Positions 6,465 to 23,841 of a DNA stretch of 64,000 nucleotides are shown here, piece after piece; within the stretch, counting starts at the first letter, position 1; each line of letters starts with the position of its first letter. The notes beneath the pieces are model-generated. The model had not been told where the DNA came from. It saw nothing but the letters and a program-made list of their open reading frames with translations, and ran no database searches. The DNA is from a virus. The position numbers and the translations under genes were made by a program. Where the stretch lies: positions 64,319-128,318 of the IMG/VR virus record IMGVR_UViG_3300029787_000005; one strand, written 5' to 3'.

Positions 6465-9400
6465 ATGTCTTACTCTAATCGACTTTACGCAAAAGAATAT
6501 GCTGGAGGGGATCGAACCTTTGAGGTTTCGTATACTGGTACTGGTACCAGGACTCCTTACATCGTATACACGAATGCGTTCCATGGATTCTATAATGGAT
6601 TCGAGGGAGTCTATACTAATAGTAGGACATCAACTCTTGCATGGCAAACAAACTTTGCTGGAGCATACACAGCTTCATATGAAGGCTTTGTAAACTATAA
6701 TTCAGACGATACAGATACTTACTCAAAAGCATATACATCATTAAAGAACTTTACTGGTCAATTAGGATACAGAAAAGACTATTCAGCCACAGGTAATCAA
6801 CCAGATAATATCTGGTCTACAATGAACATCTTGGCTAACTACAGTGGTACATATAGTACTGATATTGCATACAGCCGTGTTGTTGGTTATGTTGGCGATG
6901 GAAACTATGATGGTGCAGCATATACAGCTACATGGGTTGGAGAGCTAGCATACACACCAACATATAGTGGATTTGTTGGCTTTGCTTCATATACAAAAAC
7001 ATATGAAGGTTCAACAACATATACCAAAACATACACTAAGACATATGTTGGTAACACAATATACCAAGCTGAGTGGCAGAGAGACTACTTAAAAGCATAT
7101 GGTGGTACAGCAACCTATACAAAAGCGTATACTGTTGATGTAAACTACGACAAAGATTATTCTGCTGGTGCATGGGTAGGAGCAGACAGTTTCGTAGTTT
7201 ATAGTAAAGACTATGGTGGTGCAATAACATATCTTGATTCTACTGGTGCTGGTTTCACAGGGTTTGTTAACTACACCAAGGGTTATCAGGCTACACAATT
7301 CTATACAAAGACATATGTTGGTACAGTAGATTATAACAAAAACTATGTTGGTGCTGCTGATTACACTAAGGCATACACTGGCCGTGCTTCATACATGGCT
7401 GAAGAGAACTTCAATAAAAACTATACAAAAGCATATACAACAGTAGCTGACTTTACAAGAGTGTGGTCTGGTGGCTTGTCATATCTTGGTAACGTAAACT
7501 ATGATGGACTAACATACACAGGCACATATGCTGGTGATACAAACTATCAAACTCTTGTATACTATGTTGGAACATCTGACTATGTTGGTACATATGAAGG
7601 TCTGGCAGACAATTCATATCTTGGTTCTGCATTTGTTGGTGTATATGAAAAAGATTACATTGGTAACTATTTTAGAATATACACTAAGATCTGGCAAAAA
7701 GATTATGTAACAGATTACAACAAGAACTATGTAAAAACTTATACTAAAAGATATGAAAAGTTATATGTTGGTGATTACGTTGCTGCATATCGGACATCAT
7801 ATCACAAAGATTATGATAAAGTCTATTCTAAAATATGGACAAAAGCATACGAAGTTCCATATACCAAGATTTATTCTAAAGATTGGGAAAAGACATATAC
7901 CAAAATCTATACAAAAGTTTGGACAAAAGACTACCTTGAAGATTATGGCAAAGCATGGCTTGGCATATACAACAAAGATTATATCAAACTATACAACAAA
8001 GTATATTCCAAAGATTGGGTTAAAGATTACGGAAAAGCATATGTAGGTCCAGTCTACTATGGAGGATTTGCATCCGGTTCTCAAACAACTGCATACAATA
8101 AAGTTTGGCAGAAAGCATATACAGCTGATTATACAAAAGATTGGGAAAAGGCATATGTCAAATCCTACGAAGGTAGCTTTGATGCAACATATACTAAAAA
8201 CTGGTTAACAGATTATGCAGCAGACTATTCCAAAGACTGGGTTAAAGCATATGCTAAAGACTATGATAAAGTTTGGAATGCTACTTACGAAAAAGATTAT
8301 GGCGCCGACTATACCAAGATATGGACTAAGAACTATGATGAGTCTTGGGCCAAGGAATGGGAAAAAGATTACGGCAAGACATATACAAAAATCTGGACTA
8401 AGATTTGGCAGAAAGATTATGTTACAGATTATGAAAAAGACTATGGTAAGACATATACCACTGACTATCTAAAAGACTATGTTGCAACATACAACAAAGA
8501 TTATGTTGCAAACTATGATCAAATATATCTTAAAAATTGGTCTAAAGACTATGCAGAAGACTATACTAAGATATGGGAAAAAGCATACGATGCAGCTTAT
8601 ACTAAGATATGGGTTGGAACGTATGAGAAAAACTGGGTCAAAGCATACGAGAAAAATTATGTCAAGGCTTACATAAAAGCATATGGTAAGACTTGGGAAA
8701 AAGACTATGTCACAGATTATGATAAAGTCTATACAAAAGCATACAACAAAGGTTATGTCAAAGCATACACTGCTGCATATACTAAGATCTGGAATAGAGA
8801 TTGGGTCAAAGCATATGCTAAGGTTTGGCTTGGTGAGTATACAAAAATTTGGGATAGAAATTGGGAAAAAGACTATTCCAAGGCATATGAAAAAGCATGG
8901 GTTGGTGTATACAGCAAAGACTATGTTACATCTTACCATGTTCCATATGATAACTTTGACACCACTGTTCTATTACTAAATGCTGAAATACCAAATGCAA
9001 CTGATGGTGATGTAGAGTTTATTGATGCATCTGATCAAGGTAACCATGTTACAACTGTACACGGTAGTGCTGCTAAGAGTACAGATCAAAAGAAATTTGG
9101 TTCTGCAGCTATAGAAGTTCCAAGCAGTGGTTCTAGTGGTCTAACAATTAACTTTGCAGATGATGACTTCAACTTTCAAAATGAAGACTTTACAATTGAG
9201 TTTTGGTTAAGAGCTCCTGGTACAAACAATGCTACAATCTTAGAAGCATACGATCATTCTGACAATAGTGTCAAATGGGCTATCAGAGGTAACGATGCAT
9301 CTAGTCCTAGTGAGATAATATTCTACGAAGGAACAACTGCTAGAGTTACAGCAGATGACAATAGTCCTTGGTCATCTGATACATTTAATCATGTTGCAAT

Positions 9401-12400
9401 TGTAAGAATAAGCAACGCAATCAAAGTATACATTAATGGTACAGCTGATGCAGCAACGTATACCTCAGCTGCTAACTTAACTGGAGCCACTAGATTAGTA
9501 ATTGGTAACAGAAGACAATTAGATGCATCTGTTGGTGGTTTCATTGATGACCTTAGAATAGACAAAACCAATGGTAAGTATACTGGTAACTTTAATGTTA
9601 CTGATAATGAGACAGCTCAAGAACAAATAAATTCTGCCGATTGGACATCATTCCAAAAAGCATATGTTAAAACATACAGTGCAGACTATACTAAGATCTG
9701 GGCAAAGGATTATGATAAGACATACGAAGGTGTCTTTGATGCAAGTTATGAAAAAGCATATGATAAAGTATATACAAAGGTATGGGAAAAAGATTACGTC
9801 ACAGATTATACCAAGGTCTGGAATAAGAACTGGGAAAAGGCATACGATAAAGTATACACTAAAGCCTGGGTTGGAGCGTATACTAAAATATATGTAGGTC
9901 CAGTTTACTATGGTGGTTTCGCATCAGGATCACAGACAACAAACTATACCAAAGTTTGGGAAGGTAGCTTTGATGCTGACTATACTAAAATTTGGAACAA
10001 AGATTATGAAAAAGCATACGATAAAATCTATACCAAAAACTGGGTAAAAGCATACGATAAGACATACACTAAAGACTGGGTCAAGGCATATGCTAAGACA
10101 TGGACTGGTGTATATACTAAGATATGGACAAAAGATTACGATAAAGTTTATACTAAAATTTGGAACAAAGACTATGTAAAAGATTACGTCAATGTTTGGG
10201 TTGGTGAATGGGTCAAGAATTGGGTTAAAGATTACGAAGGTTCTTTTGATGCAACATACAACAAAGTTTGGGTGAAAGCATATTCCAAAGACTATGATAA
10301 AGTATATGAAGGTTCTTTTGATGCCACATATGAGAAGGCATACTCTAAAGACTATGATAAGGTCTATGAGACAGATTGGAACAAAGAGTATGTTGAAACA
10401 TATGAAAAAGACTATACTAAGATATGGACTAAGAACTGGGTCAAGAATTATGATACTGAATACGAAAAGCAGTATGATAAAGATTGGGTTAAGGCATACG
10501 AGAAAGATTATGTAGCTGCATATGACAAGAACTGGGATGCAGTCTACAACAAAGATTGGGTCAAAGCCTACGATAAGGTTTATACTAAGTTATGGGCTAA
10601 AGACTATGAAGCTGCTTATACCAAGATTTGGGATAGAGCTTGGGTCAAGAGTTACGATAAAAACTGGGTCAAGACTTATACCAAAGACTGGAACAAAGTA
10701 TATGTTAAGACGTATACTAAAAATTGGGTTAAAAATTACGAGACAGATTACTCAACTGATTACGGTAAGACATATACAAAAGCATATGAAGCTCACTATA
10801 CAAGAGACTTCCTCAAGTTATGGCAAGGTGAGTATACTAAGAACTATGACAAAGACTACTTAAAAGACTATGTCAAAACGTATACTAAAAACTGGGTCAA
10901 AGATTACGAGACTGACTATACTCAAGAGTATCAAGGTACTTACACCAAAGCCTATGAAGGTATCTTTGCAACATTTATCAAATACTATCTCGGTGCTAAA
11001 AACTGGGAAGGTAATATAAACTACACCAAGAACTATACTGGTCTAAGGTATTATGGTAAGGCTTGGGGTACTGAGTATGCAAAAACTTGGACTGGTAACT
11101 ATACTCACGCATACGAAAAAGATTATGTTAAGAACTATGATGCTGACTATACAAAAGATTGGACCGCAACATATACCAAGGCATATGTTAAGAACTATGA
11201 TAAAGTATACACCAAAGTATGGGCTAAAGATTGGACCAAGGCTTATGTTGATGGGTCTGGTGATACCTATACTAAGGTATGGTCAGCAGATTATGCTGCA
11301 GACTATACTAAGGCTTGGAACAAAGATTATGAAAAAGCATACGATAAAGTTTGGAACAAAGTATATACCAAGTCTTGGGAAAAGGGTTACGTTAAGAATT
11401 ATGATAAAGAGTATGTTGCTAACTATACTGGATCGTATGGAGGTGCAGCAGCTTATCTAAAAGCATATGCTGGAACAACTGATTACTCAGGTCCTGTTAA
11501 CTATACTAAGACTTGGGAAGGACCATACATAGCCAGCTTTGCACCATCGTATACTGGTGATAGTGACTTTACACAAAGATATACTGGTGCACTAACAAGG
11601 AATGTTCCTTACGAAGGTACAACAAGTTTTGTAGGTCCTTCTGGTGGTCAGCTTGATTCTAACCTTGCTGGTCAACCTAAACTTCATATTATGCAAGACA
11701 ATACTTGGAAGAATGTCAAGCAATTGTTTGTACATGCATCTGGTCAGTGGAAGAAAGTCAAGTACTTAAATACTAAACAAGGTGATACTTGGAAGCTAGC
11801 ATACATTGGTTACGATACAACTGATATCTTCTTAGATGAAGGTGAAGTTCTTACTAGCGATAGTGATGCAGGTTCAGCTCGAGGTCACGATCTTCATATG
11901 GGTAAGATCACTTACTATGTAAATGACTTCAACTTAAAATCATATCTTGAAGCTAAAGGTAAGACACCAGATACTGTTCCACAATTAGTGAACATATTTG
12001 TTGGTGTAAAAGATGACTATACTAAGAACTTTGTATTTGGTTCTACAGCAAATAATATTCCTGCTGTAAACTTAAATATGGATTCTGTTACAGCTAATGT
12101 TTCAGGAGATACACAAGCAGAGATCAAACACCTTGTACGCATTGTAAACTACACAACTGGATTCATCGTAGGTAAAGGTGGAGATGGTGGTGATGCAAAT
12201 GGAAGCACAAGAGGTCTAGGCAGCCATGGTAGTGATGGTGGTCATGCTATTGAGTCTGGAGCCAATGTACATCTGTTTGTAGAAAACTATGGTACTATTG
12301 GTGGTGGCGGTGGTGGTGGAGGTGCATCTGGTATCTCTGATCCATACAGTAAAGAATCTGGTGTGTACACAACTACATATCTTGGTGACACATATCATGG

Positions 12401-15400
12401 TTCTGGAGTACTTACTGAGTATGGTGCTACGTGGAGTAAAACATATACAAAAGACTGGATTAAAAATTACGTTAAAGTATATGTTGGCGACTACACTAAA
12501 GTATATGAAAAAGATTATTCTGCAGACTATGTTAAGGCATACGTTGGTGTATATAATAAAGACTGGGAAAAGGTATACGTTAAAGAATATGCAGCAGACT
12601 ACACTAAAGTATATGCTAAGGATTGGGAAAAGACATATACTAAAGCATACGAAGGCTCATTTGATGCAACTTATACTAAGACATATACCAAGATATGGGA
12701 AGGTAATTATACCAAAACATATACTAAAAACTATGATAAAGTTTACACAAAAGTATGGGCCAAAGACTTCAGCACAGTATATCAAGGTGAGTATACAAAA
12801 GTATGGTCTAAAGGATATGCAAGAGATTTTGAAGCAGCATTCAATGGTGGCGGTACAGACTATCTAAGAATCTTCTCAAAAGATTACGCCAAAGGATATG
12901 AGGTTGTATACACCGGTGACTACACTAAAGTGTGGTCTACAGACTTCAGCGCTGACTATACTAAATCTTGGGAAAAGGCATACGATAAAGAGTATGTTGG
13001 AGCATACACTAAAGATTATAATAAAGACTATGCAAAGGCTTGGGTTGGAGTATATAATAAAGATTGGGTCAAGGCTTATTCCAAAGATTATACTAAAGTG
13101 TGGACTGGGAACTATCTTAAAGACTATGCTAAGGTATGGGCAAAAGCATATGAAGGATCTTTTGATGGTACTTGGACTAAGGTTTGGACTAAAACATACA
13201 CTAAGATCTGGCAAGGTGCATACGAGAAAGATTATCTCAAAGCATACCAGAAAGTATACAACAAACAATATGATGCAAGTTATACTGAAGCATACCAGAA
13301 AGCATACACTGGACAATTGTATTGGATTGATGAAGACGTAGCATCTTATACTGGAGCTGCTGGAAATTTCACATCTGCTCGAGCATATGGAGATGGTGAA
13401 GTTAGCTTTATCAAAGACTTTAACAAAGAATATGTTTCTGGATTTACTGGCCAGACAGCTTACACTGCAGGAGTACCAGGATCAAGAGGTGAGCTTGGAT
13501 CATTCTCACAAGCAGAGAACTATGATGTTGATTATACTAAACTATATGCATCTCCATATACTAAAGCATACGATAAGATATATGCTAAGGCTTGGGATTC
13601 ATCTGCTGCTAACTATACAGTTAACTGGGAGAAGGCTTGGGTAGAAGATTGGGCTTCAAACTGGGCTGGATCTTTCCATGGTGGTCAGCAAGATGCAATG
13701 ACACCAACAAACTTTATGAAGACTTATCTTCCAGACTCTGGTGTTGCTCTATATGCAAAAGAATATACAAATACAAGATTTGGTCGTACATATGGTGGAT
13801 ATGAATCTGCTGGATTCATTACATCAGTTGGATCATATGCAAAAGCATACACCAAAACATATACTAAGATATGGACTAAATCATATACCAAGGCTTGGGA
13901 AAAAACATATACTAAAGTATACGAGAAAGATTACAACAAAGCATACGATGGTGCTGCATTTGCTAAAGAATGGACTAAGACATATACCAAAACATATGAT
14001 GGTACAATATATGGTGGCGTATATGAAAAAACATATCAAAAAGCATATGACAAAGTATGGCAAGGAAGTTATGTTGATGAGTGGGGTGGAGCATATGATA
14101 AAGAATATGAAGCAGATTATCTTGCAACATATGTTAAGACATACATTGGTATCTATACCAAGACATACGAGAGTGCAGACGATGCATATGTAGGACCTAC
14201 TTATGATGGTGCAACATATACTAAGAGTTGGGAAAAAGCATACTCTGTTGATTACTCAACTGATTGGGAAAAAGCATACACCAAGTCATACGACAAAGAC
14301 TATGAAAAAGCATACGAAGCTGCTTATACAAAAGCATGGTCCAAAGACTATAATAAAGATTATGAAAAAGACTACGAAGGAACTTTCTCTAAGAGTTATG
14401 TTAAGAACTACGATCGTGTATATGTTGGTGATTATACTAAGACTTACGATAAAGATTATTCCAAAGACTATGCTAAGGTATGGAACAGCTCTGCTGCAAC
14501 ATATACAAAAGTATATACTAAGAGTTATGACAAAACATACTCAAGTGATTGGACTAAGTCATATGAGAAGGATTATGTAAAAGATTACACTGGTGCATTT
14601 ACCAAAGCGTATACTAAAACATATACAAAAGATTACTCAGCTGATTACGCTAAAGAATGGACAAAAGCATATACCAAAACATATGATAAAGATTACACTA
14701 AAGCGTATACAAAAATCTATACAAAAGATTATGTCAAAAACTACGATGCAGATTATGTTGGATCATACACTGCAACATTCTCAAGATCATACGATGCAGA
14801 ATACGAAGGATCATATGATAAAGAGTATGAAAAAGCATGGACAAAAATATGGACTAAGGGTTTTGGTTCTACTACATACATTGGTGACTACTCAGCAACA
14901 TATCTTGCTGACTTTACAAAACAATATCAAAAAGACTTTGGTAGCTCATACAGTAGAGACTATAATGCTGAATATGAAGCATCATATACAGGAACATATG
15001 TTGCAACATATGTCAAGACATACTCAAAAGATTGGGTCAAGGCATATGAAGCAGACTACAACAAAGACTATACAGCAGATTATGCTACAACATGGATAAA
15101 AGAATATCTTGGTAACTATAGCAGACCTGGTGGTGTGTATGGTGCATTCCTCAAAGAATACACAGATACATTTGTTAGAGTATACAACACCAAAGGTTCA
15201 TTCATTGGTACATATCTCAAAACATATACCAAGAACTATGATCAATTGTATCAAGGTGTTTATACAAAAGCATATCAAAAGGCATATGAAGGTACATTTA
15301 ACCAAGACTATCTAGTAATATACAACAAAGATTATGCTAAGGCATATGTTGGACCAGTCTTCTACGGTGGTTTTGCTTCTGGCTCACAGACAACAACATA

Positions 15401-15944
15401 CAACAAAGCATATACTAAAGGTTATGAGAAGAACTGGATTAAGACTTACACAGGTATCTTCACTAAAGATTATGAGAAGGCATACACTGGTGACTATACT
15501 AAGTCTTGGACAAAAGACTATGTTAAGACATTTGAAGATACAGCATATTCAAGAGAAGTAAACATTGCATATCTTGGATTTGCAGAGACAACTGGTGTAG
15601 CTGGTTCTGGTGGAGCTGGTTGGAACATTGGTGAAGAAGGTACTACTGAAGCTGATCACAGTCATATGTTATTCCTACCACAAGAAGGTAATCTAATCAA
15701 TGGTGGTAGTCGTGGTGTTCCTGATTGGGAATATGGTAACTCAAGAGCCATTGGTGGTAAAGGTGGAGACTTAGGTAATGTTGGTACCGGTGGTGGTGAA
15801 AGGTTCCTAAGAAAATCAAGACTTGGAAGATCTGGTGATGGTGGTAAACCTGGTGCAGCCATTAAAGGTTATGACTCTGATTATGTTAACATGATCTACC
15901 AGGGTAATATATTAGGTGACCCCAACTACATGTTCCAAGGTTAA
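6465..15944 (+). CDS. Giant Tyr/Trp-x-Lys-x repeat protein (3159 aa) with internal LamG/concanavalin-like domain and glycine-rich adhesin-like core; putative virion fibre/appendage
   Basis: Long 4-residue-period tracts (YTKI-WEKD-YVKA); LamG-like segment about 8955-9600 (DFTIEFW, FNHVAIVR, GFIDDLRI); Gly-rich segments about 12170-12335 and 15594-15870; located among tail-fibre genes. Confidence 0.75.
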   Translation: MSYSNRLYAKEYAGGDRTFEVSYTGTGTRTPYIVYTNAFHGFYNGFEGVYTNSRTSTLAWQTNFAGAYTASYEGFVNYNSDDTDTYSKAYTSLKNFTGQLGYRKDYSATGNQPDNIWSTMNILANYSGTYSTDIAYSRVVGYVGDGNYDGAAYTATWVGELAYTPTYSGFVGFASYTKTYEGSTTYTKTYTKTYVGNTIYQAEWQRDYLKAYGGTATYTKAYTVDVNYDKDYSAGAWVGADSFVVYSKDYGGAITYLDSTGAGFTGFVNYTKGYQATQFYTKTYVGTVDYNKNYVGAADYTKAYTGRASYMAEENFNKNYTKAYTTVADFTRVWSGGLSYLGNVNYDGLTYTGTYAGDTNYQTLVYYVGTSDYVGTYEGLADNSYLGSAFVGVYEKDYIGNYFRIYTKIWQKDYVTDYNKNYVKTYTKRYEKLYVGDYVAAYRTSYHKDYDKVYSKIWTKAYEVPYTKIYSKDWEKTYTKIYTKVWTKDYLEDYGKAWLGIYNKDYIKLYNKVYSKDWVKDYGKAYVGPVYYGGFASGSQTTAYNKVWQKAYTADYTKDWEKAYVKSYEGSFDATYTKNWLTDYAADYSKDWVKAYAKDYDKVWNATYEKDYGADYTKIWTKNYDESWAKEWEKDYGKTYTKIWTKIWQKDYVTDYEKDYGKTYTTDYLKDYVATYNKDYVANYDQIYLKNWSKDYAEDYTKIWEKAYDAAYTKIWVGTYEKNWVKAYEKNYVKAYIKAYGKTWEKDYVTDYDKVYTKAYNKGYVKAYTAAYTKIWNRDWVKAYAKVWLGEYTKIWDRNWEKDYSKAYEKAWVGVYSKDYVTSYHVPYDNFDTTVLLLNAEIPNATDGDVEFIDASDQGNHVTTVHGSAAKSTDQKKFGSAAIEVPSSGSSGLTINFADDDFNFQNEDFTIEFWLRAPGTNNATILEAYDHSDNSVKWAIRGNDASSPSEIIFYEGTTARVTADDNSPWSSDTFNHVAIVRISNAIKVYINGTADAATYTSAANLTGATRLVIGNRRQLDASVGGFIDDLRIDKTNGKYTGNFNVTDNETAQEQINSADWTSFQKAYVKTYSADYTKIWAKDYDKTYEGVFDASYEKAYDKVYTKVWEKDYVTDYTKVWNKNWEKAYDKVYTKAWVGAYTKIYVGPVYYGGFASGSQTTNYTKVWEGSFDADYTKIWNKDYEKAYDKIYTKNWVKAYDKTYTKDWVKAYAKTWTGVYTKIWTKDYDKVYTKIWNKDYVKDYVNVWVGEWVKNWVKDYEGSFDATYNKVWVKAYSKDYDKVYEGSFDATYEKAYSKDYDKVYETDWNKEYVETYEKDYTKIWTKNWVKNYDTEYEKQYDKDWVKAYEKDYVAAYDKNWDAVYNKDWVKAYDKVYTKLWAKDYEAAYTKIWDRAWVKSYDKNWVKTYTKDWNKVYVKTYTKNWVKNYETDYSTDYGKTYTKAYEAHYTRDFLKLWQGEYTKNYDKDYLKDYVKTYTKNWVKDYETDYTQEYQGTYTKAYEGIFATFIKYYLGAKNWEGNINYTKNYTGLRYYGKAWGTEYAKTWTGNYTHAYEKDYVKNYDADYTKDWTATYTKAYVKNYDKVYTKVWAKDWTKAYVDGSGDTYTKVWSADYAADYTKAWNKDYEKAYDKVWNKVYTKSWEKGYVKNYDKEYVANYTGSYGGAAAYLKAYAGTTDYSGPVNYTKTWEGPYIASFAPSYTGDSDFTQRYTGALTRNVPYEGTTSFVGPSGGQLDSNLAGQPKLHIMQDNTWKNVKQLFVHASGQWKKVKYLNTKQGDTWKLAYIGYDTTDIFLDEGEVLTSDSDAGSARGHDLHMGKITYYVNDFNLKSYLEAKGKTPDTVPQLVNIFVGVKDDYTKNFVFGSTANNIPAVNLNMDSVTANVSGDTQAEIKHLVRIVNYTTGFIVGKGGDGGDANGSTRGLGSHGSDGGHAIESGANVHLFVENYGTIGGGGGGGGASGISDPYSKESGVYTTTYLGDTYHGSGVLTEYGATWSKTYTKDWIKNYVKVYVGDYTKVYEKDYSADYVKAYVGVYNKDWEKVYVKEYAADYTKVYAKDWEKTYTKAYEGSFDATYTKTYTKIWEGNYTKTYTKNYDKVYTKVWAKDFSTVYQGEYTKVWSKGYARDFEAAFNGGGTDYLRIFSKDYAKGYEVVYTGDYTKVWSTDFSADYTKSWEKAYDKEYVGAYTKDYNKDYAKAWVGVYNKDWVKAYSKDYTKVWTGNYLKDYAKVWAKAYEGSFDGTWTKVWTKTYTKIWQGAYEKDYLKAYQKVYNKQYDASYTEAYQKAYTGQLYWIDEDVASYTGAAGNFTSARAYGDGEVSFIKDFNKEYVSGFTGQTAYTAGVPGSRGELGSFSQAENYDVDYTKLYASPYTKAYDKIYAKAWDSSAANYTVNWEKAWVEDWASNWAGSFHGGQQDAMTPTNFMKTYLPDSGVALYAKEYTNTRFGRTYGGYESAGFITSVGSYAKAYTKTYTKIWTKSYTKAWEKTYTKVYEKDYNKAYDGAAFAKEWTKTYTKTYDGTIYGGVYEKTYQKAYDKVWQGSYVDEWGGAYDKEYEADYLATYVKTYIGIYTKTYESADDAYVGPTYDGATYTKSWEKAYSVDYSTDWEKAYTKSYDKDYEKAYEAAYTKAWSKDYNKDYEKDYEGTFSKSYVKNYDRVYVGDYTKTYDKDYSKDYAKVWNSSAATYTKVYTKSYDKTYSSDWTKSYEKDYVKDYTGAFTKAYTKTYTKDYSADYAKEWTKAYTKTYDKDYTKAYTKIYTKDYVKNYDADYVGSYTATFSRSYDAEYEGSYDKEYEKAWTKIWTKGFGSTTYIGDYSATYLADFTKQYQKDFGSSYSRDYNAEYEASYTGTYVATYVKTYSKDWVKAYEADYNKDYTADYATTWIKEYLGNYSRPGGVYGAFLKEYTDTFVRVYNTKGSFIGTYLKTYTKNYDQLYQGVYTKAYQKAYEGTFNQDYLVIYNKDYAKAYVGPVFYGGFASGSQTTTYNKAYTKGYEKNWIKTYTGIFTKDYEKAYTGDYTKSWTKDYVKTFEDTAYSREVNIAYLGFAETTGVAGSGGAGWNIGEEGTTEADHSHMLFLPQEGNLINGGSRGVPDWEYGNSRAIGGKGGDLGNVGTGGGERFLRKSRLGRSGDGGKPGAAIKGYDSDYVNMIYQGNILGDPNYMFQG
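7632..15575 (+). repeat. Degenerate 12-bp-period coding repeat ([YW]-x-K-x)n in several blocks
   Basis: Recurring units such as tatactaagata, tgggaaaaagat, tatgttaaagca; interrupted by the LamG domain and the Gly-rich core. Confidence 0.9.
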
Positions 15945-15950
15945 GGTGTC

Positions 15951-18900
15951 ATGGGACGGCCCCTTAAAATTAAAACCTCTGGAGGTGGAACATGGATAGC
16001 TCTACAAGAGATACCAGATACAGAATTAACCCACATAGTCCATCAAGTTCTTACAGAGTTTGCATCTAGTACTTCTGGTACTGGAACACTTTCTGTTGGA
16101 ACAGATACTGGAACAAGTATTGGTACATTTACAGATACCAATTCATCAACAAGTTCCACAACTACTGTTTATCAAAATTTAACGTCCGTGTCAGAATCAA
16201 GTATGGTCCGCCCCGTGGAGTTCGGTTCAACTATTCAAGAGGCATCTGATGCAAACATTAATTCGTTCATCATTAGCACTGCTCTTTCTAATCTTGTGTC
16301 TAACGGAATTGGGTCTTATGTCCTGTCAACAACAAATCCTGACTCAGATAGATACACTGCTATAACACCAGCGCTAACTGATAACACAACGAGTACTTCT
16401 ACAAGTTATAATTTATACAGAAAAACATCTGTTGCAACTGCACCAGCTCAAGTAATACCATTAAAGGTTACTGGTAGTACAGTTAAACAGATGACTAATA
16501 CAGAGATCAAAACTCTCACAGCAAGAGTAAGAAATAGAATCATTGACACAGGAATTGGTAAGTATGCTATTCAAGCAGCTGCACCATCTACTGGTACATG
16601 GGTTGATCAAGGAACAATACTTGATACAAAGATCATTGATTCTGATAGCGATTCCTATTCAAGGACTTACTTAAAAACATACACTAAAGCATTTGCAAAG
16701 AATTATCTCAAGACATACACTGGAACATTTGTTGGACAGTATGTTGGTACATATGAGAAAGATTATCAAAAAGCATATACCAGTGCAATAAACTATGAGA
16801 AGATATACACTACAGTTTGGACTAAGTCATATAGTAAAGACTTTATTGGTGTGTATCAAGGTGTAGTCAACTTCAATAGAACATTTGAAGGTGACTTTGC
16901 AAAAGATTGGATCAAGTCTTACAGTAAAGCATACACTGGCTTTATACTATATGCAAAAGATTATGATCAAACATTCACAGGAAACTTTCATAAAGACTAT
17001 CTCAAGGGATATGTTGGTGAGAGAAACTATCTAGCAGAGTATGCAAGAGATTGGAACAAAACATACACCAAGTTATATACTGGTGAATATCAAAAGACAG
17101 AAAACTTTGAAGTTAATTATGAAGGTGAAAGAGTTGTAAACTACAATGCAACCTTTGCTGCTTTCTACGAAGGTGAGATAACTTCAGCTGCAACATATGT
17201 CAAAGCATATGTAAAAGATTTTGGAAATGATTATGCTGCTTCATTCTCAGCTGCTGCAAACTATTCTGGTACATTCAACAGAACATACACGAAAGATTAT
17301 GGTAGAGCATGGACTGTTGAGTTTTCAGGTCCTGGTGTATTCCAATCTGAATGGACTAAAAACTATACAGTAAACTATCAAAAGGCTTATGCAAAGCTCT
17401 GGACAAAAGATTGGGTAAAGCAATATATTGTTCAGTATGAAAAGTTATATGAAAAGAGTTGGTTGGAAGATTGGGTCAAGGCTTACGAGAAAGACTATGA
17501 AGCAGCATATGATAAAGATTGGATTAAAAACTGGGTCAAATCATATTCAAAAGATTGGAATAAAGATTATTCTGCTGACTATCTAAAAGACTATGGTAAG
17601 ACATATACTACTGATTACAACAAAGATTATATCACCAACTACGAGAAAACATATGTGAAGGCATACGTTGGTGTATACAATAAAGACTATATCAAAGCAT
17701 ACGAGAAAGATTGGGTTACAGACTATACTCACAATTGGGTCAAAGCATATCTAAAGGTATGGAACAAAGACTATGTCAAAGGTTATGAGATTGCATGGAA
17801 CAAAGTATGGTTAGGTATCTATACTAAAGACTGGTCAAAAGACTATGAAAAAATATATGTAAAGAATTGGGTAAAATCATATGATGCGGACTACGCAAAA
17901 CAATGGCTTGGTGAGTATGAAAAAAATTATGTCAAGTCTTATGACAAAGATTATGTTAAGGCATACGATCGCATCTGGTCACAAACGTACACAAAAATCT
18001 ACGATGCAGCATACACAAAGATCTGGGCCAAGGACTGGGAAAAAGATTACGTAAAGATATATCAAAAGAACTACGTTAAAACATATAGTGCTGCATATGA
18101 AGGATCGTTTGATGAAAACTATAACAAAGATTATGTAGCTGCATATACAAAGATATGGAACAAGACTTATACTAAGATCTGGCAGAAAGACTATGTCACA
18201 GATTACACAAAGACATACACAACAGATTATAATAAAGACTATACAAAAATTTATGCTAAGGCTTGGGTTGGTGCATATACAAAAATATATGTTGGGCCTG
18301 TGTACTACGGTGGTTTTGCATCTGGATCTCAAACTACAAACTACACAAAAGTTTGGGAAGGTAGCTTTGGTGCCAACTATACAAAGGTATGGGTAAAGAC
18401 ATATACCAAAGATTGGAACAAAGCATATACCAAGAACTGGATAAAAAACTATGATGCTGATTATGTAAAAGCATATGATAAGATATACGAAAAGGCTTGG
18501 GTCAAGACTTATACTAAAGCATATGTTGGTGTTTACAATAAGGATTGGAACAAAGATTACGTTAAGGATTATTCCAAAAATTGGGTTAAAGCATATACTA
18601 AGAATTACGATAAAGTATATAACAAAGATTGGTCTAAAGATTGGAACGTTGATTACGTTGCAGTGTATCTAAAGAATTGGGTTAAGACATACGACAAAGA
18701 TTATGTTAAAGCATATGAAGGTGCCTTTGATGCAACCTACACAAAGATATGGAATAAAGATTATCTAAAAGACTATGCTAAGTTGTGGGCTAAGGATTAT
18801 GATAAAGAGTATGAAGGATCTTTTGATGCTGCATATGTTAAACAATATGCAAAGAACTGGGTAAAGGCTTATGAGGCTAGTTACGAGAAAGACTACGAAG

Positions 18901-20042
18901 CAGCATATACAAAGAACTGGGTTACACAATACGAGAAGAACTATGTCAAATCATACGAAGGATCATTTGATGCTGACTGGGTAAAGGCTTATACAAAAAA
19001 TTGGGTTAAGACATATACAACTGATTGGAACAAAACTTATACCAAGACTTATACTAAGTTGTGGACCAAGACATATACAACTGAGTATGAAAAGGACTAT
19101 GTTAAAAATTATGTTGCAAGATATCTTACAAACTGGGTAAAGACTTATGAAAAAGCATACGAGAAGTCCTACGCAAAAACTTATGAAAGAATATGGACAA
19201 AAATTTGGGAGAAAGCATATACTCGCAACTACTCCGCCACATACCTCAAAGACTATACCAAGGTATGGTCACGGGATTATGAAGGCAATTATACTGGTTT
19301 CATCAATTACACTGGACAATTTATTTCAAACTACCTCAAAGACTACGTTGGACAAGTAACAAAAACATTTTCTGGCTTTATTAATTACAATAAACTGTTT
19401 ACTAAGAGCTGGGGTCGGATGTATAATAAAGAATATGTCAACGAATGGGCTAAGGTTCAAAACTTCCAAAAAGACTTTGAAAAAGATTTTGCTAAAGAAT
19501 ACGTAGGTGTGTATACTAAAACATACTCATCTATTCATACGTATGAAGGAACAAGAACTGTAGACTATCAGAAAACATATACAGCAGATTATACAAAAGA
19601 GTATGCAGCAGACATAACCTATGTCAAGACTTATACAGCTACACGCTCTCAAGGATTTGAAGGAGCATATGAAAAAACATATAGTAGTGAGACAGACTAT
19701 GAAAAAGACTACGATAAAGAATATGAAGCTGTATATAATAGTAACTTTGGTAGCATTAACTTTTCTGCTACACTCAATTTTGAAAAGGCTTGGACTAAGA
19801 ACTTTGCAAAATTTTATGATGCAGAATATGCGAAGAACTACGAAGGATATATAGACTACACACAAGACTACAATAAGGCTTATGAAGGAACTTTCACAGG
19901 ATACTTTGAGACAGACTTCATAAAAACTTATTCAATAGATTATTCAAACGACTATATTAAGAGCTATATAAATACATATGTAGATACAACCAACTATGTG
20001 GGAACCGCATCTACACTTAAATTATGGGTGAGGGTTGCTTAA
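15951..20042 (+). CDS. Second Tyr/Trp-x-Lys-x repeat protein (1363 aa); small N-terminal domain followed by a mirror-symmetric repeat region
   Basis: Residues 1-235 are non-repetitive and Ser/Thr-rich; residues 236-1349 have an aromatic nearly every 4th position; central GPVYYGGFASGSQTT; ends in LKLWVRVA. Confidence 0.75.
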   Translation: MGRPLKIKTSGGGTWIALQEIPDTELTHIVHQVLTEFASSTSGTGTLSVGTDTGTSIGTFTDTNSSTSSTTTVYQNLTSVSESSMVRPVEFGSTIQEASDANINSFIISTALSNLVSNGIGSYVLSTTNPDSDRYTAITPALTDNTTSTSTSYNLYRKTSVATAPAQVIPLKVTGSTVKQMTNTEIKTLTARVRNRIIDTGIGKYAIQAAAPSTGTWVDQGTILDTKIIDSDSDSYSRTYLKTYTKAFAKNYLKTYTGTFVGQYVGTYEKDYQKAYTSAINYEKIYTTVWTKSYSKDFIGVYQGVVNFNRTFEGDFAKDWIKSYSKAYTGFILYAKDYDQTFTGNFHKDYLKGYVGERNYLAEYARDWNKTYTKLYTGEYQKTENFEVNYEGERVVNYNATFAAFYEGEITSAATYVKAYVKDFGNDYAASFSAAANYSGTFNRTYTKDYGRAWTVEFSGPGVFQSEWTKNYTVNYQKAYAKLWTKDWVKQYIVQYEKLYEKSWLEDWVKAYEKDYEAAYDKDWIKNWVKSYSKDWNKDYSADYLKDYGKTYTTDYNKDYITNYEKTYVKAYVGVYNKDYIKAYEKDWVTDYTHNWVKAYLKVWNKDYVKGYEIAWNKVWLGIYTKDWSKDYEKIYVKNWVKSYDADYAKQWLGEYEKNYVKSYDKDYVKAYDRIWSQTYTKIYDAAYTKIWAKDWEKDYVKIYQKNYVKTYSAAYEGSFDENYNKDYVAAYTKIWNKTYTKIWQKDYVTDYTKTYTTDYNKDYTKIYAKAWVGAYTKIYVGPVYYGGFASGSQTTNYTKVWEGSFGANYTKVWVKTYTKDWNKAYTKNWIKNYDADYVKAYDKIYEKAWVKTYTKAYVGVYNKDWNKDYVKDYSKNWVKAYTKNYDKVYNKDWSKDWNVDYVAVYLKNWVKTYDKDYVKAYEGAFDATYTKIWNKDYLKDYAKLWAKDYDKEYEGSFDAAYVKQYAKNWVKAYEASYEKDYEAAYTKNWVTQYEKNYVKSYEGSFDADWVKAYTKNWVKTYTTDWNKTYTKTYTKLWTKTYTTEYEKDYVKNYVARYLTNWVKTYEKAYEKSYAKTYERIWTKIWEKAYTRNYSATYLKDYTKVWSRDYEGNYTGFINYTGQFISNYLKDYVGQVTKTFSGFINYNKLFTKSWGRMYNKEYVNEWAKVQNFQKDFEKDFAKEYVGVYTKTYSSIHTYEGTRTVDYQKTYTADYTKEYAADITYVKTYTATRSQGFEGAYEKTYSSETDYEKDYDKEYEAVYNSNFGSINFSATLNFEKAWTKNFAKFYDAEYAKNYEGYIDYTQDYNKAYEGTFTGYFETDFIKTYSIDYSNDYIKSYINTYVDTTNYVGTASTLKLWVRVA
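16656..19997 (+). repeat. Tetrapeptide-period coding repeat with 26-residue super-period on both flanks
   Basis: Aromatic spacing 4,4,4,4,4,6 repeated on both outer arms; uninterrupted 4-period from F464 to Y780 and from Y798 to Y1114. Confidence 0.9.
19967..19974 (+). promoter_or_regulatory. T4-type late promoter TATAAATA
   Basis: Exact consensus about 80 nt upstream of the 20053 start. Confidence 0.6.
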
Positions 20043-20052
20043 GGAGTATATA

Positions 20053-20850
20053 ATGAGTAGTGAAGAAGTAATGGATATTGATCCTAGAGCCCATGGCTTT
20101 AAGATTGATACGGCCGGTAAGGTCGCTAGCTCAGAAGCAGAGTTAGCAAACAAAAGAATAGATGCTAAAATTCCAGAGTTTGAAGAAGAAATAGATCATG
20201 ACATTCCTCATGACAAGGAAGAAGTGGTTGAAGAAGTTTACAAAGAAAGTCTCAGTAAAGATCGTTCAGACCGACTAGGGTTGGTCAGACCTCCAGATAA
20301 GAATATGAAAACATCATGGATGCGTGATCCTGTCGAGGCAGATGATATGGAGGAGATCAAATTGGCAGAAGAAAAAGCTAGGGAACCTGAATGGCCTTTT
20401 GGTGATGGTGAACCAATATATGCATTCTTTAGTAATGATGCAAGGACAGTACTTACATTCTTTCTAAGAATGCCAGATGATAGAGTTGAGAATCATACTA
20501 TAGACTCAGCTCCTATGCATGAAGCTGCATGGCATCATCTACGAAAAATCTTCACAGAAGAAATGTTGAATAAGAATACTAGTCGAGAGATCAATAAGAT
20601 TCATAGACTGCGTTCCAAAGAAGAAGATGAAGAAAAAGAACGTGAAAGTAAGATGAAGCAAGAAGGGTTGTTCGGTGCTAAAGTTGAGGCATTTGAACTG
20701 GAAGTTGTTAGTAAGTCTACTAATAGAGATTTGAAATCAGCTATCCGTAAATCAAAATCTACTATGGAAGTTATTGCCACTGTAGGTGCTCTCATTGCTC
20801 TTGATCATTTGGAGTCTAAAAAAGAAGATGTCCCAGCAGCAGCCGAATAA
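20053..20850 (+). CDS. Hypothetical acidic protein (possible fibre assembly factor)
   Basis: ATG at 20053 preceded by AAGGAG; lies between the repeat proteins and the glycosyltransferase-like gene. Confidence 0.6.
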   Translation: MSSEEVMDIDPRAHGFKIDTAGKVASSEAELANKRIDAKIPEFEEEIDHDIPHDKEEVVEEVYKESLSKDRSDRLGLVRPPDKNMKTSWMRDPVEADDMEEIKLAEEKAREPEWPFGDGEPIYAFFSNDARTVLTFFLRMPDDRVENHTIDSAPMHEAAWHHLRKIFTEEMLNKNTSREINKIHRLRSKEEDEEKERESKMKQEGLFGAKVEAFELEVVSKSTNRDLKSAIRKSKSTMEVIATVGALIALDHLESKKEDVPAAAE

Positions 20851-21715
20851 TGGTTTTCTGTACGTAGGATCTCTGACTAAACCATATTATGATGCTGCTG
20901 TAATGTCAGCAGAGTCCATTAAGGACTACTGGCCAGAAGCTAAGATAATGTTGTTTACTCATGAAGATTGGGTACAAGAACCAAGAGACTCTAGAATCTT
21001 TGATAAAATTGTTACTGGAGTCCCAGCACATTGTCGAGCTAAGCTATGGGCATTAAATCAAACTATATTTGATAAGACATGCTATATGGATGCTGACACA
21101 TATTGTGAGCATGAAGACATAAAGTATATCTTTGATGATCTACCTGATAACTATGATATGGCTATGACTACAAATAGACCATATAATGCTAAGGTTGTCT
21201 ACTTTAAGAAAGATAGAGAGCTTACTCATTATGAAGAAGAAGACAAGAAGTTAATCTGGGAAGGTGGGGACCCAGATGGCAAACCATTGTATGCAGTGCA
21301 CTCTTGGGAAGAGAATGCCAAGAATGAAGTATACAGAATGTTATGGCATTGTGGAATGTTTATATATAATAATAAGCCGCATACGCTAAAAATGTTACAT
21401 GCATGGTATACTAATTATAGGGAACAGATTGAAAACAAAAAGACATGGCACGAAAGATTTGAACATCCAAGATCATTGTGGTTCTGGGATACGTATGCTT
21501 TCTGGCGAACAAACTTTTATACAAATTATGAAGTCAAGATTCGTGAGATCCATCCAAAGTGGAACTTTGTAAATGGATACAGAGAATTTGAATTAAGTGA
21601 AAAACATCCAAAAGTTATTCACCACTACACAGTACCAGCTCGACCACAGGATGAAGGATTAATAGATGACCCCAATATATCAAATACAATCGGAAATTTT
21701 GACATACTTAAATGA
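20828..21715 (+). CDS. Putative glycosyltransferase (GT-A fold, nucleotide-diphospho-sugar transferase-like)
   Basis: RAKLWAL..T.FDKTCYMDADT with DxD motif; ...KWNFV...IHHY C-terminus reminiscent of GT8-like proteins. Confidence 0.6.
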   Translation: MSQQQPNNGFLYVGSLTKPYYDAAVMSAESIKDYWPEAKIMLFTHEDWVQEPRDSRIFDKIVTGVPAHCRAKLWALNQTIFDKTCYMDADTYCEHEDIKYIFDDLPDNYDMAMTTNRPYNAKVVYFKKDRELTHYEEEDKKLIWEGGDPDGKPLYAVHSWEENAKNEVYRMLWHCGMFIYNNKPHTLKMLHAWYTNYREQIENKKTWHERFEHPRSLWFWDTYAFWRTNFYTNYEVKIREIHPKWNFVNGYREFELSEKHPKVIHHYTVPARPQDEGLIDDPNISNTIGNFDILK

Positions 21716-22439
21716 GTGGCAAGAGTTCATATGGGGACTAGAGCTCCATGAAAACTTTGGTAAAGATAAGAAGTTTAAAGCTCGAGGTGGCAAGTTCTTT
21801 AACGAGAACCGATCAGAGTATGCAAGTTCCGTAGAGTGTTTGATGTCTCTTAAACATGATGAGCATGATGGCTTTCCACCAGACTCATATGGATATGACT
21901 TTAATCAGATACCACAATGGATCAAGTCAGGATCTATTAGTAAAGATATAGGTGAGCCATTAGCTGAGAAGAGTAAATGGTTGGATGATAATCTTGGTGC
22001 TTATCTTGGATATAGGTTCTGTGCATTAAAGATGTTCTATCCTCCAGAAGGATATATTTCTTGGCATACTAACTGGAACGTACCAAGCTACAACATTTTA
22101 TTTACATACAATCCTACTGGTGATGGTTTCTGGAGACATATTAATCCAACTGGATCAGAGTCACATAGACCTAACATAGGAGAGAATGAAGAGAACGTAG
22201 TTACTATTCCTGACAAGCCAGGTTGGTCATGTAAGGTTGGTTACTATGGACGTAAAGAAGAACATGACAGGATTGTTTGGCATACAGCTTATACTAAGGA
22301 GCCAAGAATCACATTAGGTTATGTTATCTTTGAAGAAAGTATTTGGAAGAATACAGTTGAAGAGATTGCTGGTAAAGAATTAGTATGGCCTCTAGCTCCA
22401 TATGAACCAGAGGCCGTACAAACATCCTTTACTAAATAA
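21666..22439 (+). CDS. Putative cupin / Fe(II)-2OG oxygenase-like protein
   Basis: YPPEGYISWHTN (HxN) ... VWHTAY...RITLGY double-stranded beta-helix pattern. Confidence 0.45.
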   Translation: MTPIYQIQSEILTYLNEWQEFIWGLELHENFGKDKKFKARGGKFFNENRSEYASSVECLMSLKHDEHDGFPPDSYGYDFNQIPQWIKSGSISKDIGEPLAEKSKWLDDNLGAYLGYRFCALKMFYPPEGYISWHTNWNVPSYNILFTYNPTGDGFWRHINPTGSESHRPNIGENEENVVTIPDKPGWSCKVGYYGRKEEHDRIVWHTAYTKEPRITLGYVIFEESIWKNTVEEIAGKELVWPLAPYEPEAVQTSFTK

Positions 22440-22851: not shown

Positions 22852-23841
22852 TTATTTAAGTTGTGCAGCTAATCTTTTTAGAGCAGCTGCTCTCTCCTTA
22901 GGTTGTAGTGGAATTAATCCTTTGTCAACTAAACGTCCTTCAGGACCAGACATACCATCTGACATAAAATGATCTACATATGGCTTTAAAGGATAATCAT
23001 TTAAATGTTCTTTTTTTACATAAAAGTATAGTGCTCTTGAAATAGGATATGATCCATCTGCAATTCCTTCAAAGGTTGGTTCTTTACCATTTATCGTTGC
23101 ACCTTGTACTAGATTAGTATTTTCTTCCAAAAATGAAAAACCAAAAATTCCAAATCTTTCTGGATTGCTACCTAACTTTTGAATAATGAGATTGTCATTT
23201 TCTCCAGCTTCAATATAACCACCATCTTCTCTTACTTGTGAACAACGTGTCTTATAACCATCAGGTCCTTTCTTTTTGATACCCATCTTCTTACAAGCCT
23301 TATGTAAAACAAGTTCTACAAATGCATCTCTTGTACCTGATGTTGGAGGAGGGCCCATTATTTCAATTTTTCTATTTGGTAGACTCTTATTTATATCTGA
23401 CCATTTTACATATGGATTTTCAATAAACTTTTTTCCATCCCAAACTTCTTTTGAAACAGCCTTGTATAAATCTTTACGTGAAATAGTCATTGGTTTAGAT
23501 TGTTTTGAATTAGCTAAAACAATACCATCATATCCAATATGTACTTCTATTGGTGTTACACCATTCTTTGTACATTTTTTAATTTCTGATTTCTTGATTG
23601 CTCTACTTGCATTTGTTGCATCTGGATGTTTTTTTCCTACACCATTGCAGAATAATTTCATTCCACCACCAGTACCTGTTGATTCTATAACTGGTGTTTT
23701 ATGTCCTGATTTGCCTAGAGATTCTGCAACAACAGTTGCAAATGGAAAAACAGTAGACGAGCCAACTACTAATAGACTATCTCGTGCATAGACGGATGTA
23801 CTCATTACTAGCATAGCTAGCACTAAAAAAACTCTTTTCAT
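22852..23841 (-). CDS. pstS: Phosphate ABC transporter substrate-binding protein PstS
   Basis: Signal peptide; VGSSTVFPF, ESTGTGGGMKLFC, GPPPTSGTRDAF, YPISRALYFYVK motifs; AAGGAG RBS. Confidence 0.93.
   Translation of the reverse strand: MKRVFLVLAMLVMSTSVYARDSLLVVGSSTVFPFATVVAESLGKSGHKTPVIESTGTGGGMKLFCNGVGKKHPDATNASRAIKKSEIKKCTKNGVTPIEVHIGYDGIVLANSKQSKPMTISRKDLYKAVSKEVWDGKKFIENPYVKWSDINKSLPNRKIEIMGPPPTSGTRDAFVELVLHKACKKMGIKKKGPDGYKTRCSQVREDGGYIEAGENDNLIIQKLGSNPERFGIFGFSFLEENTNLVQGATINGKEPTFEGIADGSYPISRALYFYVKKEHLNDYPLKPYVDHFMSDGMSGPEGRLVDKGLIPLQPKERAAALKRLAAQLK

Follow-up and report, generated by a model that had tools for sequence, protein, structure and literature searches.

A conserved motif in two giant tail-fibre proteins

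We analysed a 64,000-nucleotide stretch of viral DNA (hereafter, the window; positions 64,319 to 128,318 of IMG/VR record IMGVR_UViG_3300029787_000005) that encodes two adjacent giant repeat proteins, and focused on a 15-residue motif, GPV[YF]YGGFASGSQTT, that occurs in both of them. All coordinates given below are those of the window, which is the second half of the 128,318-base record (estimated completeness of the record, 73%). T4-like genes are encoded, among them those for a T4-type tail sheath, a portal, a major head protein and a large terminase, and the major head protein shares 62-70% identity with its counterparts in a Stenotrophomonas phage, Pelagibacter phage Mosig, the Methylophilales phages Melnitz and marine Synechococcus myoviruses. 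The source is an uncultured marine T4-like myovirus, and the two genes lie in its tail-fibre cluster.

Both genes are intact open reading frames (ORFs) on the forward strand. Gene 1 (6465-15944) encodes a fibre protein of 3159 amino acids (aa) with K-x-[Y/W/F]-x repeats, which carries the motif three times and also contains a LamG insert and a segment resembling Gp38. Gene 2 (15951-20042) encodes 1363 aa, in which a non-repeat N-terminal domain of ~235 aa is followed by a single repeat array, likewise built of K-x-[Y/W/F]-x units and mirror-symmetric about a central motif. Both proteins are richest in Tyr, Lys and Thr. In the regular stretches an aromatic residue (Y >> W > F) recurs at every fourth position and is followed two positions later by Lys in ~70% of the units; if these stretches are beta strands, the aromatic and Lys residues would share one face. 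The repeat parts lack Cys and nearly lack Pro, with only two prolines in gene 2 aa 236-1349, one of them inside the motif.

The motif is under purifying selection

The motif was found at 8046-8090 (copy 1, gene 1 aa 528-542), 9897-9941 (copy 2, gene 1 aa 1145-1159), 15351-15395 (copy 3, gene 1 aa 2963-2977, the F variant) and 18294-18338 (copy 4, gene 2 aa 782-796), always on the forward strand. Copy 1 is the putative apex of a side hairpin with ~21 units per arm, copy 2 that of the gene 1 main hairpin, copy 3 that of a hairpin of 12 and 11 spacings before the Gly-rich C-terminal domain, and copy 4 that of the gene 2 hairpin. A six-frame scan of the 64 kb for three core pieces of the motif revealed no sites beyond these four, and a degenerate DNA pattern matched the whole 128-kb record four times in the forward and zero times in the reverse direction (backwards control, 0).

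A 37-aa stretch that includes copy 2 (9861-9971) is identical in protein sequence to the stretch that includes copy 4 (18258-18368), and 17 of its 111 bases differ, all at third codon positions. A sequence-only reading of the window had reported the four sites and this identity, and both its coordinates and the third-position differences were confirmed. These 37 residues are the longest common substring of the two proteins; after they were masked, the longest was 17 residues, compared with a mean of 10.4 and a maximum of 14 in 100 pairs generated from a position-specific four-residue-repeat model.

In the 37-aa core, 17.0 of 25.3 synonymous sites have changed between gene 1 copy 2 and gene 2 (Nei-Gojobori; synonymous divergence, dS, 1.69) versus 0 of 85.7 non-synonymous sites, and the non-synonymous divergence (dN) of the flanks is 0.46-0.51. 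For five paralogue pairs, dN is 0-0.03 in the 15-aa motif (0-1 replacement) and 0.46-1.25 in the 50-aa flanks. The dS values between window copies range from 1.5 to not computable (near saturation), and within the motif 8-10 of 12.3 synonymous sites differ in every paralogue pair. The attribution of the identical residues to strong purifying selection rather than recent copying, made from the sequence alone, was thus borne out by the dN/dS analysis.

The nine codons upstream of the motif (9855-9896 and 18252-18293) occur in two versions, an A-W-V-G-A-Y-T-K type and a V-W-L-G-N-Y-D-K type, which are common to gene 1 copy 2 and gene 2 and are combined differently among contigs of the relatives described below (L005, L006, L010 and L012). 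The Y or F state at motif position 4 is uniform among the copies in most multi-copy contigs and mixed in the window (Y, Y, F, Y). Moreover, the 37-aa core differs from its L006 orthologues by dN of 0.099 and 0.042, versus 0 between the window paralogues. An old exchange between paralogues, or parallel selection, is likely in the 37-aa core and the upstream patch, and the uniform Y/F state together with the shared patch suggests old paralogue exchange or co-selection. Because the residues have been kept through long synonymous divergence, exchange between paralogues leaves the conclusion of purifying selection unchanged.

A shortened look-alike of the motif, Y-V-G-P-T-Y-D-G-A-T-Y, is found in gene 1 at 14187-14219 (aa 2575-2585), where the flanking repeat runs of 13 and 22 units have no mirrored glycines.

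Gene 2 is mirror-symmetric about the motif

The aromatic spacings of gene 2 follow a palindromic order, that is, ~235 non-repeat residues, eight blocks with a 26-residue period, 79 × 4, the motif, 79 × 4, and 26-residue blocks to the C-terminus. The regular part of the ascending arm (17334-18293, forward strand, aa 462-781) and that of the descending arm (18339-19298, forward strand, aa 797-1116) each contain 80 aromatics at an unbroken spacing of 4, and the glycines of the descending arm mirror those of the ascending arm. The proximal part of the ascending arm (16656-17333, forward strand) consists of a 26-residue super-repeat (5 × 4 + 6), which that of the descending arm (19299-19997, forward strand) mirrors. 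Each super-repeat has five 4-spacings and one 6- or 3+3-spacing, with about eight per arm in mirror order. When the first arm is read in reverse from the motif, its phase matches that of the second over >450 residues.

Glycine stands in for Lys at units 1, 15, 31, 39, 51 and 79 of the ascending arm and at units 1, 15, 31, 39, 51, 78 and 79 of the descending arm. All six ascending glycines are mirrored (6/6 against 7 in 80 units; hypergeometric P 2.3e-8), and shifting the register by 1-2 units leaves 0 matches. Since a mirror pattern in a protein cannot arise by duplication or inversion of the DNA, selection on facing residues is needed. The significance of mirrored glycines holds only for centres fixed beforehand. 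In a global search for mirror centres from glycines alone, the gene 2 motif centre came out top with 5 pairs, but shuffles also reached 5, and the top sum for gene 1 lay within the null range.

Gene 1 is consistent with a branched hairpin

Read naively, the arms around the first two motif copies of gene 1 are unequal (30-34 and 71 units for copy 1, 20 and 85 for copy 2), and a simple hairpin over the whole 35-unit arm of copy 1 was rejected, as only one of four glycines is mirrored. Glycine positions pointed to a spliced arrangement, and we evaluated a spliced model from which the LamG insert and a symmetric hairpin of n1 units around copy 1 were removed, scanning n1 from 0 to 34; outward from copy 2, the ascending arm then comprises 21 units, the preceding run read backwards, and the run before copy 1. 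Removal of the LamG insert keeps the four-residue phase (the aromatic at 828 is followed by that at 1063 - 231 = 832). The number of mirrored glycines was highest at n1 = 21, with seven of eight, compared with 4-5 at other values, and this value leaves 86 units in the ascending arm, exactly as many as in the descending arm. None of 20,000 random placements of eight glycines reached seven mirrored when maximised over n1. In the orthologue L033, which is 71% identical here, six of eight glycines are mirrored at the same n1 (0/20,000 permutations).

The ascending arm would thereby be assembled from three pieces, all on the forward strand like the other gene 1 features. Piece 1 (7632-7796, aa 390-444), with a mirror sum of 1891 and 3 glycine pairs, would pair with the last part of the descending arm, piece 2 (8343-8948, aa 627-828) has a mirror sum of 2073 with 2 glycine pairs, and piece 3 (9642-9896, aa 1060-1144) has 21 units and adjoins motif copy 2; the model predicts three registers, with sums of 2304, 2073 and 1891. 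Looped out of the arm would be the side hairpin tipped by copy 1 (7797-8342, aa 445-626, 182 aa, best splice n1 = 21) and the LamG or concanavalin-A-like domain (8949-9641, aa 829-1059, 231 aa), which passes the threshold of Pfam family PF13385 (Laminin_G_3; E 1e-17, 65.1 bits, cut-off 27.6). The descending arm (9942-10973, aa 1160-1503) has 86 units without proline. Around copy 2, glycines are mirrored at units [1,13] of both arms. These patterns support a main hairpin at aa 390-1503 tipped by copy 2, with the LamG domain 21 units and the copy-1 side hairpin 72 units below the tip, and thus a probably branched fibre.

Copy 3 lies between a short ascending arm (15201-15350, aa 2913-2962) and a short descending arm (15396-15545, aa 2978-3027), which share glycine units [4,7]. 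The Gly-rich C-terminal 130 aa that follow (15552-15941) had no family in a Pfam scan.

Repeat arms in gene 1 also flank turns of other kinds. A short turn, YVDGSGDTY (11244-11270, aa 1594-1602), has arms of 16 and 14 units, and a predicted hairpin without the motif (12420-13307, aa 1986-2281) has arms of 35 and 37 units around the tight turn FNGGGTDY at 12840-12863. The latter has five of five glycines mirrored (p 6.5e-5) and the top mirror sum of gene 1. Between them lies a glycine-rich segment resembling Gp38 adhesins (12066-12341, aa 1868-1959; Pfam PF05268, phrog_2056), with the motif outside it. Gene 1 matched PF05268 with E 1.1e-7 and 32.3 bits (cut-off 25), and the piece alone with E 1.3e-9 and 38.7 bits; the match spans profile positions 38-120 of 218 only.

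The hairpins of genes 1 and 2 differ in their glycine units ([1,13,24,30,73,82,84] vs [1,15,31,39,51,79]), and their co-assembly in register was rejected for that reason.

Residue constraints across the arms

Trp was not used to set any register, and its distribution was profiled with the aromatics of both arms interleaved in mirror register. In the gene 2 ladder, adjacent Trp-Trp occurs once versus 12.0 expected (Poisson P 8e-5), and Trp-Trp at lag 3 occurs 20 times versus 11.9. In the spliced gene 1 ladder, adjacent Trp-Trp occurs once versus 12.2 expected (Poisson P 8e-5), and Trp-Trp at lag 3 occurs 21 times versus 12.1. In the copy-1 side hairpin, with arms of 21 and 21 units, Trp-Trp was seen 0 times at lag 1 and 8 times at lag 3 versus 2.7 expected. 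When the gene 2 register was shifted, W-W coincidences numbered 1 at 0, 0 at +1, and 10 at both -1 and +2.

The same avoidance was detected in relatives. Adjacent Trp-Trp occurs 0 times versus 9.2 expected in L033, and twice versus 8.2 in L035, though 56 of 158 ladder positions of L035 differ from the window in their Trp state; Trp avoidance across the arms is also seen in L031 and L028. In gene 2, acid-acid pairs on the non-aromatic face are depleted (3 and 5 vs 12 expected) only at mirror sums 1576-1578. Every cross-arm signal falls within one unit of the mirror register, in which either aromatic faces aromatic (sum 1578) or aromatic faces the Lys position (sum 1580).

In general, Trp tends towards every third ladder position, giving a Y-Y-W rhythm; the enrichment at lag 3 is ~1.7-fold in each protein and reaches 3-fold in the side hairpin of copy 1. 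The rhythm could reflect ribbon twist or packing between chains.

The motif and its arms in relatives

With the degenerate DNA pattern, 27 motif copies were retrieved from 9 viral contigs (in 14 stretches) and 26 from 12 metagenome contigs (in 16 stretches), two sets that overlap by at least one contig; relatives are given L numbers here. Motif positions in the relatives match those in the window (gene 1 aa 528/529, 1145/1146 and 2963/2964-2980; gene 2 aa 782-784). Arm lengths co-vary. Full-length gene 2 orthologues (L008/L031, L028 and L029) have arms of 79 and 79 units, and the L035 lineage, to which the truncated L016 belongs, has arms of 78 and 78 with very regular super-repeats, eight per side. 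In L015 the glycines are at units [1,6,12] of both arms, and L011, L014 and L017 have an extra Gly at unit 13 in both copy-1 arms.

L014/L033 carry an extra motif copy with arms of 17 and 15 units that aligns with the short turn YVDGSGDTY of the window (16 and 14 units), and thus each arm is longer by one unit. Because this motif copy stands at the aligned position of a short turn, the comparison directly places the motif at a predicted turn, and indicates that turning can do without the motif.

A wider, profile-free search with the 120 residues around the motif against 1.84 billion representatives returned 70 proteins at E <=0.001, of which 24 were at <=1e-10 and none at <=1e-30. A word-based search gave nine length-matched gene 2 relatives, seven of them with PF05268. 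The strict motif was found in only 1 of 77 distinct relatives, G-x-x-[YF]-Y-G-G-[FY] in 7, and a looser version in 13; in the distant relatives the repeat runs are joined by many other short junctions.

Among deposited phages, megablast with 3 kb of gene 1 gave no match, and tblastn with the gene 2 motif region matched one record only, Phage C48C1 (GenBank OQ984149.1, 141011-151054; 24% identity). The C48C1 genome belongs to the Kyanoviridae, and the matching relative, ~3,350 aa long, is a hypothetical protein; four genes after it lies a gene annotated 'L-shaped tail fiber protein assembly'.

A fold-back model with the motif at the apex

The reading that we favour, to which we assign a probability of about 0.75, is that the motif forms the apex (turn plus cap) of beta-ribbon fibres in which one chain folds back on itself. 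At each motif the chain would reverse, the following arm would run antiparallel to the preceding arm, and the aromatics of both arms would interleave into one ladder. Gene 2 would be a single hairpin of ~545 residues out and ~550 back, which at the usual strand rise would measure ~180 nm in full extension. Its N-terminal domain and its C-terminus would lie together, at the end opposite the motif. Gene 1 aa 390-1503 would form the main hairpin, whose ascending arm would carry the looped-out copy-1 side hairpin and the lectin-like LamG domain, and copy 3 would tip a short hairpin beside the C-terminal glycine-rich domain.

In arms of such low complexity, pairing could slip by any multiple of four residues. 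A loop of 17 residues that is rigid, aromatic and Gly/Pro-rich would act as the nucleus of the turn, set the register and close off the open ladder end: zipping of the hairpins may begin at the turn, the ladder could be sealed at its open end by the three aromatics of the loop, and the mirrored glycines along the arms would be further register marks. In most fibre proteins the N-terminal domain attaches to the virion. If it does so here, the motif would be exposed at the distal tip of the fibre, which in gene 2 would be ~180 nm away, and one phage particle would bear several kinds of fibre ends with the same tip.

The sequence-only reading had likewise proposed a turn or tip module, perhaps with a role in binding, docking or recognition by a modifying enzyme, and several hairpins or a branched filament for gene 1. 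For the first, all copies are central to mirror-ordered arms with mirrored glycines and cross-arm Trp avoidance, arm lengths co-vary (79 and 79 vs 78 and 78; 16 and 14 vs 17 and 15), and a relative exchanges a short Gly/Ser/Asp turn for the motif; the second is supported by the spliced-arm model.

Structure predictions were consulted as well. AlphaFold2 was given the gene 2 motif plus 62 residues on each side (23 aligned copies), and its best model has a strand at 2-61, a loop at 62-78 and a strand at 79-138, symmetric about the mirror centre. This predicted hairpin weakly supports the fold-back model. A Foldseek search of the PDB with it matched only generic long beta-hairpin stems from phage tail proteins and pore-forming toxins, with template modelling scores (TM-scores) <=0.25. 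A complex prediction with three copies of the motif plus 62 residues on each side scored 0.00, which speaks neither for nor against assembly, and AlphaFold2 on gene 1 aa 380-1510 (5 aligned sequences) reached a mean predicted local distance difference test score (pLDDT) of 25.7 with no residue >50, too low to bear on the spliced model. The best score in the ESM Atlas was 0.87, to unnamed clusters, and neither the N-terminal domain of gene 2 nor the motif alignment retrieved a PDB sequence below E 0.1.

Several observations weigh against the fold-back model or limit it. The best hairpin model has a mean pLDDT of 59.3 and a predicted TM-score of 0.23 (the other four models, mean pLDDT 33.5-37.9), and the motif itself is <50. 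Copy 1 mirrors its glycines only through the spliced model with one fitted parameter. The centre of symmetry depends on the signal used, with Trp avoidance symmetric about sum 1580 and acid-acid avoidance falling at 1576-1578, and the two point to different hydrogen-bond registers. The DNA pattern used to find relatives fixes the first nine motif residues, and variation there is therefore not sampled. One metagenome contig (L024; 2,899 bases, with a 701-aa ORF carrying a gene-2-type motif) has arms of 53 and 48 units whose glycines are unmirrored beyond unit 1; it may be a real exception or a collapsed repeat assembly.

The distant relatives add two further points. At 61 of their junctions, 117 glycines are mirrored versus 103.1 expected (shifted controls, 84-102), a comparison that does not discriminate because those repeats carry Gly in most units; junctions that stand out are P0034, with 8/8 mirrored (p 1.3e-5), and P0005, with 3/4. 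Also, 64 of the 77 relatives have no version of the motif, and reversal is thus not motif-dependent. Absence of the motif from homologous repeat proteins had been named beforehand as an outcome that would refute a turn or tip module, and the result is divided: close relatives keep the motif at orthologous positions, and most distant ones do without it. The motif is therefore one of several apex types, and folding back is possible without it.

Lastly, turning alone does not explain the conservation of the 17-residue loop and ~10 flanking residues on each side. Such conservation, set against simple turns in the same protein and 50% divergence of the arms, asks for more than a turn. We infer that the motif is conserved mainly as a register-setting folding nucleus and cap. 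By analogy with T4 gp37, whose tip has Gly, Ser and Tyr, a role in binding is plausible for the tip, and such a role fits poorly with the variability usual in receptor-binding tips.

Alternative explanations

The mirror statistics would be met equally well if the chain did not reverse at all and the motif marked the two-fold axis of two or more extended antiparallel chains, as a mid-shaft joint or kink. We consider such pairing between chains about a dyad improbable. The motif is Gly/Pro-rich and interchangeable with a 6-residue Gly/Ser/Asp turn, gene 1 has a 7-residue tight turn between mirrored arms, the 12- and 11-spacing hairpin of copy 3 directly adjoins the C-terminal domain, and the one usable AlphaFold model folds the motif as a hairpin. 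Furthermore, neither the lone non-repeat domain at the N-terminus nor the three-fold symmetry usual for tail fibres is easily squared with the two equivalent fibre ends of an antiparallel dimer. The motif could instead be conserved mainly as a binding epitope (for a host ligand, an assembly chaperone, docking to the virion or recognition by a modifying enzyme), its location at a turn being secondary. Conservation far stricter than a turn requires (dN 0-0.03 over 15 residues, when other hairpins use simple turns) speaks for this, as do the Tyr/Gly/Ser-rich composition, which resembles the receptor-contacting tip residues of T4 gp37, the uniform Y/F at position 4 within most multi-copy contigs, as expected for one common partner, and the lectin-like LamG domain 21 units from copy 2. 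However, no partner was identified, no modifying enzyme is recognisable in the 10 neighbouring ORFs, and the receptor-binding tips of phage fibres are usually their most variable part, not their most conserved. We judge an epitope as the main cause unlikely; it would go together with an apex rather than supplant it.

Recent duplication or gene conversion, by which the copies would be identical without any special function, is contradicted by the synonymous divergence and was rejected as very improbable. The shared combinations of the nine-codon patch do suggest past exchange between paralogues, and the 37-aa core differs more between orthologues than between the window paralogues, as copying would predict. 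Nevertheless, with two-thirds of the synonymous sites of the 37-aa stretch changed and a comparable share in each motif pair, any conversion must be old and the amino acids have been held since, and the motif is at the same orthologous positions in the 9 viral and 12 metagenome contigs.

With the fold-back model kept as the preferred reading, a more extended version of it is tentative and, in our estimate, somewhat short of even odds. The motif would be a portable apex cassette of an undescribed fold, in which one chain is zipped back over up to ~550 residues. The resulting two-stranded ribbon would have Tyr/Tyr/Trp interleaved as a ladder, and its register would be nucleated by the cassette and checked by mirrored glycines. 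Spliced-in domains and hairpins would give branched fibres with several identical tips, and identical tips on two proteins might act together, e.g., in multivalent, low-affinity sensing of some conserved feature on the host surface.

Comparison with known fibres and hairpins

At the distal tip of the T4 long tail fibre protein gp37, the collar D10 comprises residues 811-881 and 1010-1026 and the needle D11 residues 882-1009, and the receptor-contacting Gly/Ser/Tyr residues 940-949 lie mid-sequence (PMC6957217). This protein resembles those of genes 1 and 2 in belonging to a T4-like tail-fibre cluster, in a chain that runs out to the tip and back (predicted from sequence here) and in a tip that lies mid-sequence. 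In contrast, genes 1 and 2 have no sequence relation to gp37 by Pfam, PHROGs or PDB sequence search (E <0.1). Unlike the iron-binding His-x-His motifs of gp37, there are 0 H-x-H in gene 2 and one in gene 1 (aa 3065), outside the arms. Moreover, gp37 has ~60 residues of unique sequence where the arms here have 20 to ~550 residues of strict tetrapeptide repeat, and the tip here is conserved, not host-specific, with gene 1 apparently branched.

The Gp38 adhesin of S16/T2-type phages (PF05268) is shared more directly, as a gene 1 segment and seven of the nine length-matched gene 2 relatives carry this module, and the repeat arms thus belong to proteins that also hold it. The PF05268 fold is a polyglycine-II sandwich of multiple Gly-rich strands. 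Unlike this adhesin, the motif has no multiple Gly-rich strands, all its copies lie outside the PF05268 match, and gene 2 lacks PF05268.

Long beta-hairpin stems, such as those of phi29 and Andhra tail or collar proteins and of beta-pore-forming toxins, are like the predicted model in having two very long antiparallel strands and one loop. With TM-scores of 0.13-0.25, 5-15% identity and a model pLDDT of 59, this is a likeness of shape and not of kinship. The known stems have 30-60 residues per arm, form barrels of >=12 strands and lack a tetrapeptide repeat, unlike genes 1 and 2. Designed tryptophan-zipper hairpins are 12-16-residue peptides with Trp-Trp pairs, in which cross-strand aromatics interleave on one face. 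The interleaving is alike, whereas here adjacent Trp is avoided (1 vs 12) and the ladder extends up to ~170 positions.

Full-text literature searches found no description of tetrapeptide-repeat phage fibres that fold back, and a term search of the RBPseg tail-fibre atlas found no occurrence of 'hairpin', 'fold back' or 'antiparallel'. The conserved apex cassette, the Trp rule, the swap of motif and short turn, and the proposed branched topology of gene 1 are new elements.

Genomic setting

Upstream of genes 1 and 2 are an open-ended protein of 1758 aa with DUF4815 and a 219-aa protein that resembles the C-terminal ends of tail fibres. In pelagimyophages, according to a published survey, the host recognition cluster sits downstream of VrlC, and homology failed to identify the tail fibre proteins (PMC7029224). 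The DUF4815 protein is probably VrlC, and genes 1 and 2 would then occupy the position of that host recognition cluster.

Directly after gene 2, at 20035-22439, are three consecutive ORFs (271, 309 and 257 aa) without a Pfam or PHROG family, which are candidate fibre chaperones or additional fibre parts. Two genes within the fibre region are encoded on the opposite strand, one for a PstS-like phosphate-binding protein (PBP_like_2, E 4.9e-42; 22852-23841, reverse strand) and one for a radical-SAM protein (E 3.3e-15; 27212-28141, reverse strand), the latter 7 kb off. Finding both of them here is what one typically sees in host recognition clusters of marine T4-like phages. In a Pfam search of 10 neighbouring ORFs, seven had no family and the others were the PstS-like protein, the radical-SAM protein and a below-threshold AdoHcyase match; the radical-SAM protein excepted, no modifying enzyme was recognisable among them.

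Implications for the fibres of marine T4-like phages

Tail fibres decide which cells a phage attacks, and those of the abundant marine T4-like phages are almost wholly uncharacterised. If the fold-back model is true, genes 1 and 2 would represent a fibre principle without a solved example, in which a low-complexity tetrapeptide repeat is folded back and a conserved cap sets the register. The length of such a fibre would be tunable by adding units to both arms, and the pairing would tolerate inserted domains or side branches. Protein designers, too, would find a self-registering beta ribbon of interest. For the phages themselves, the motif provides a handle for locating turning points, predicting fibre length from sequence and designing structural constructs, and for asking whether a conserved tip, unlike the hypervariable tips known so far, recognises a feature common to many hosts.

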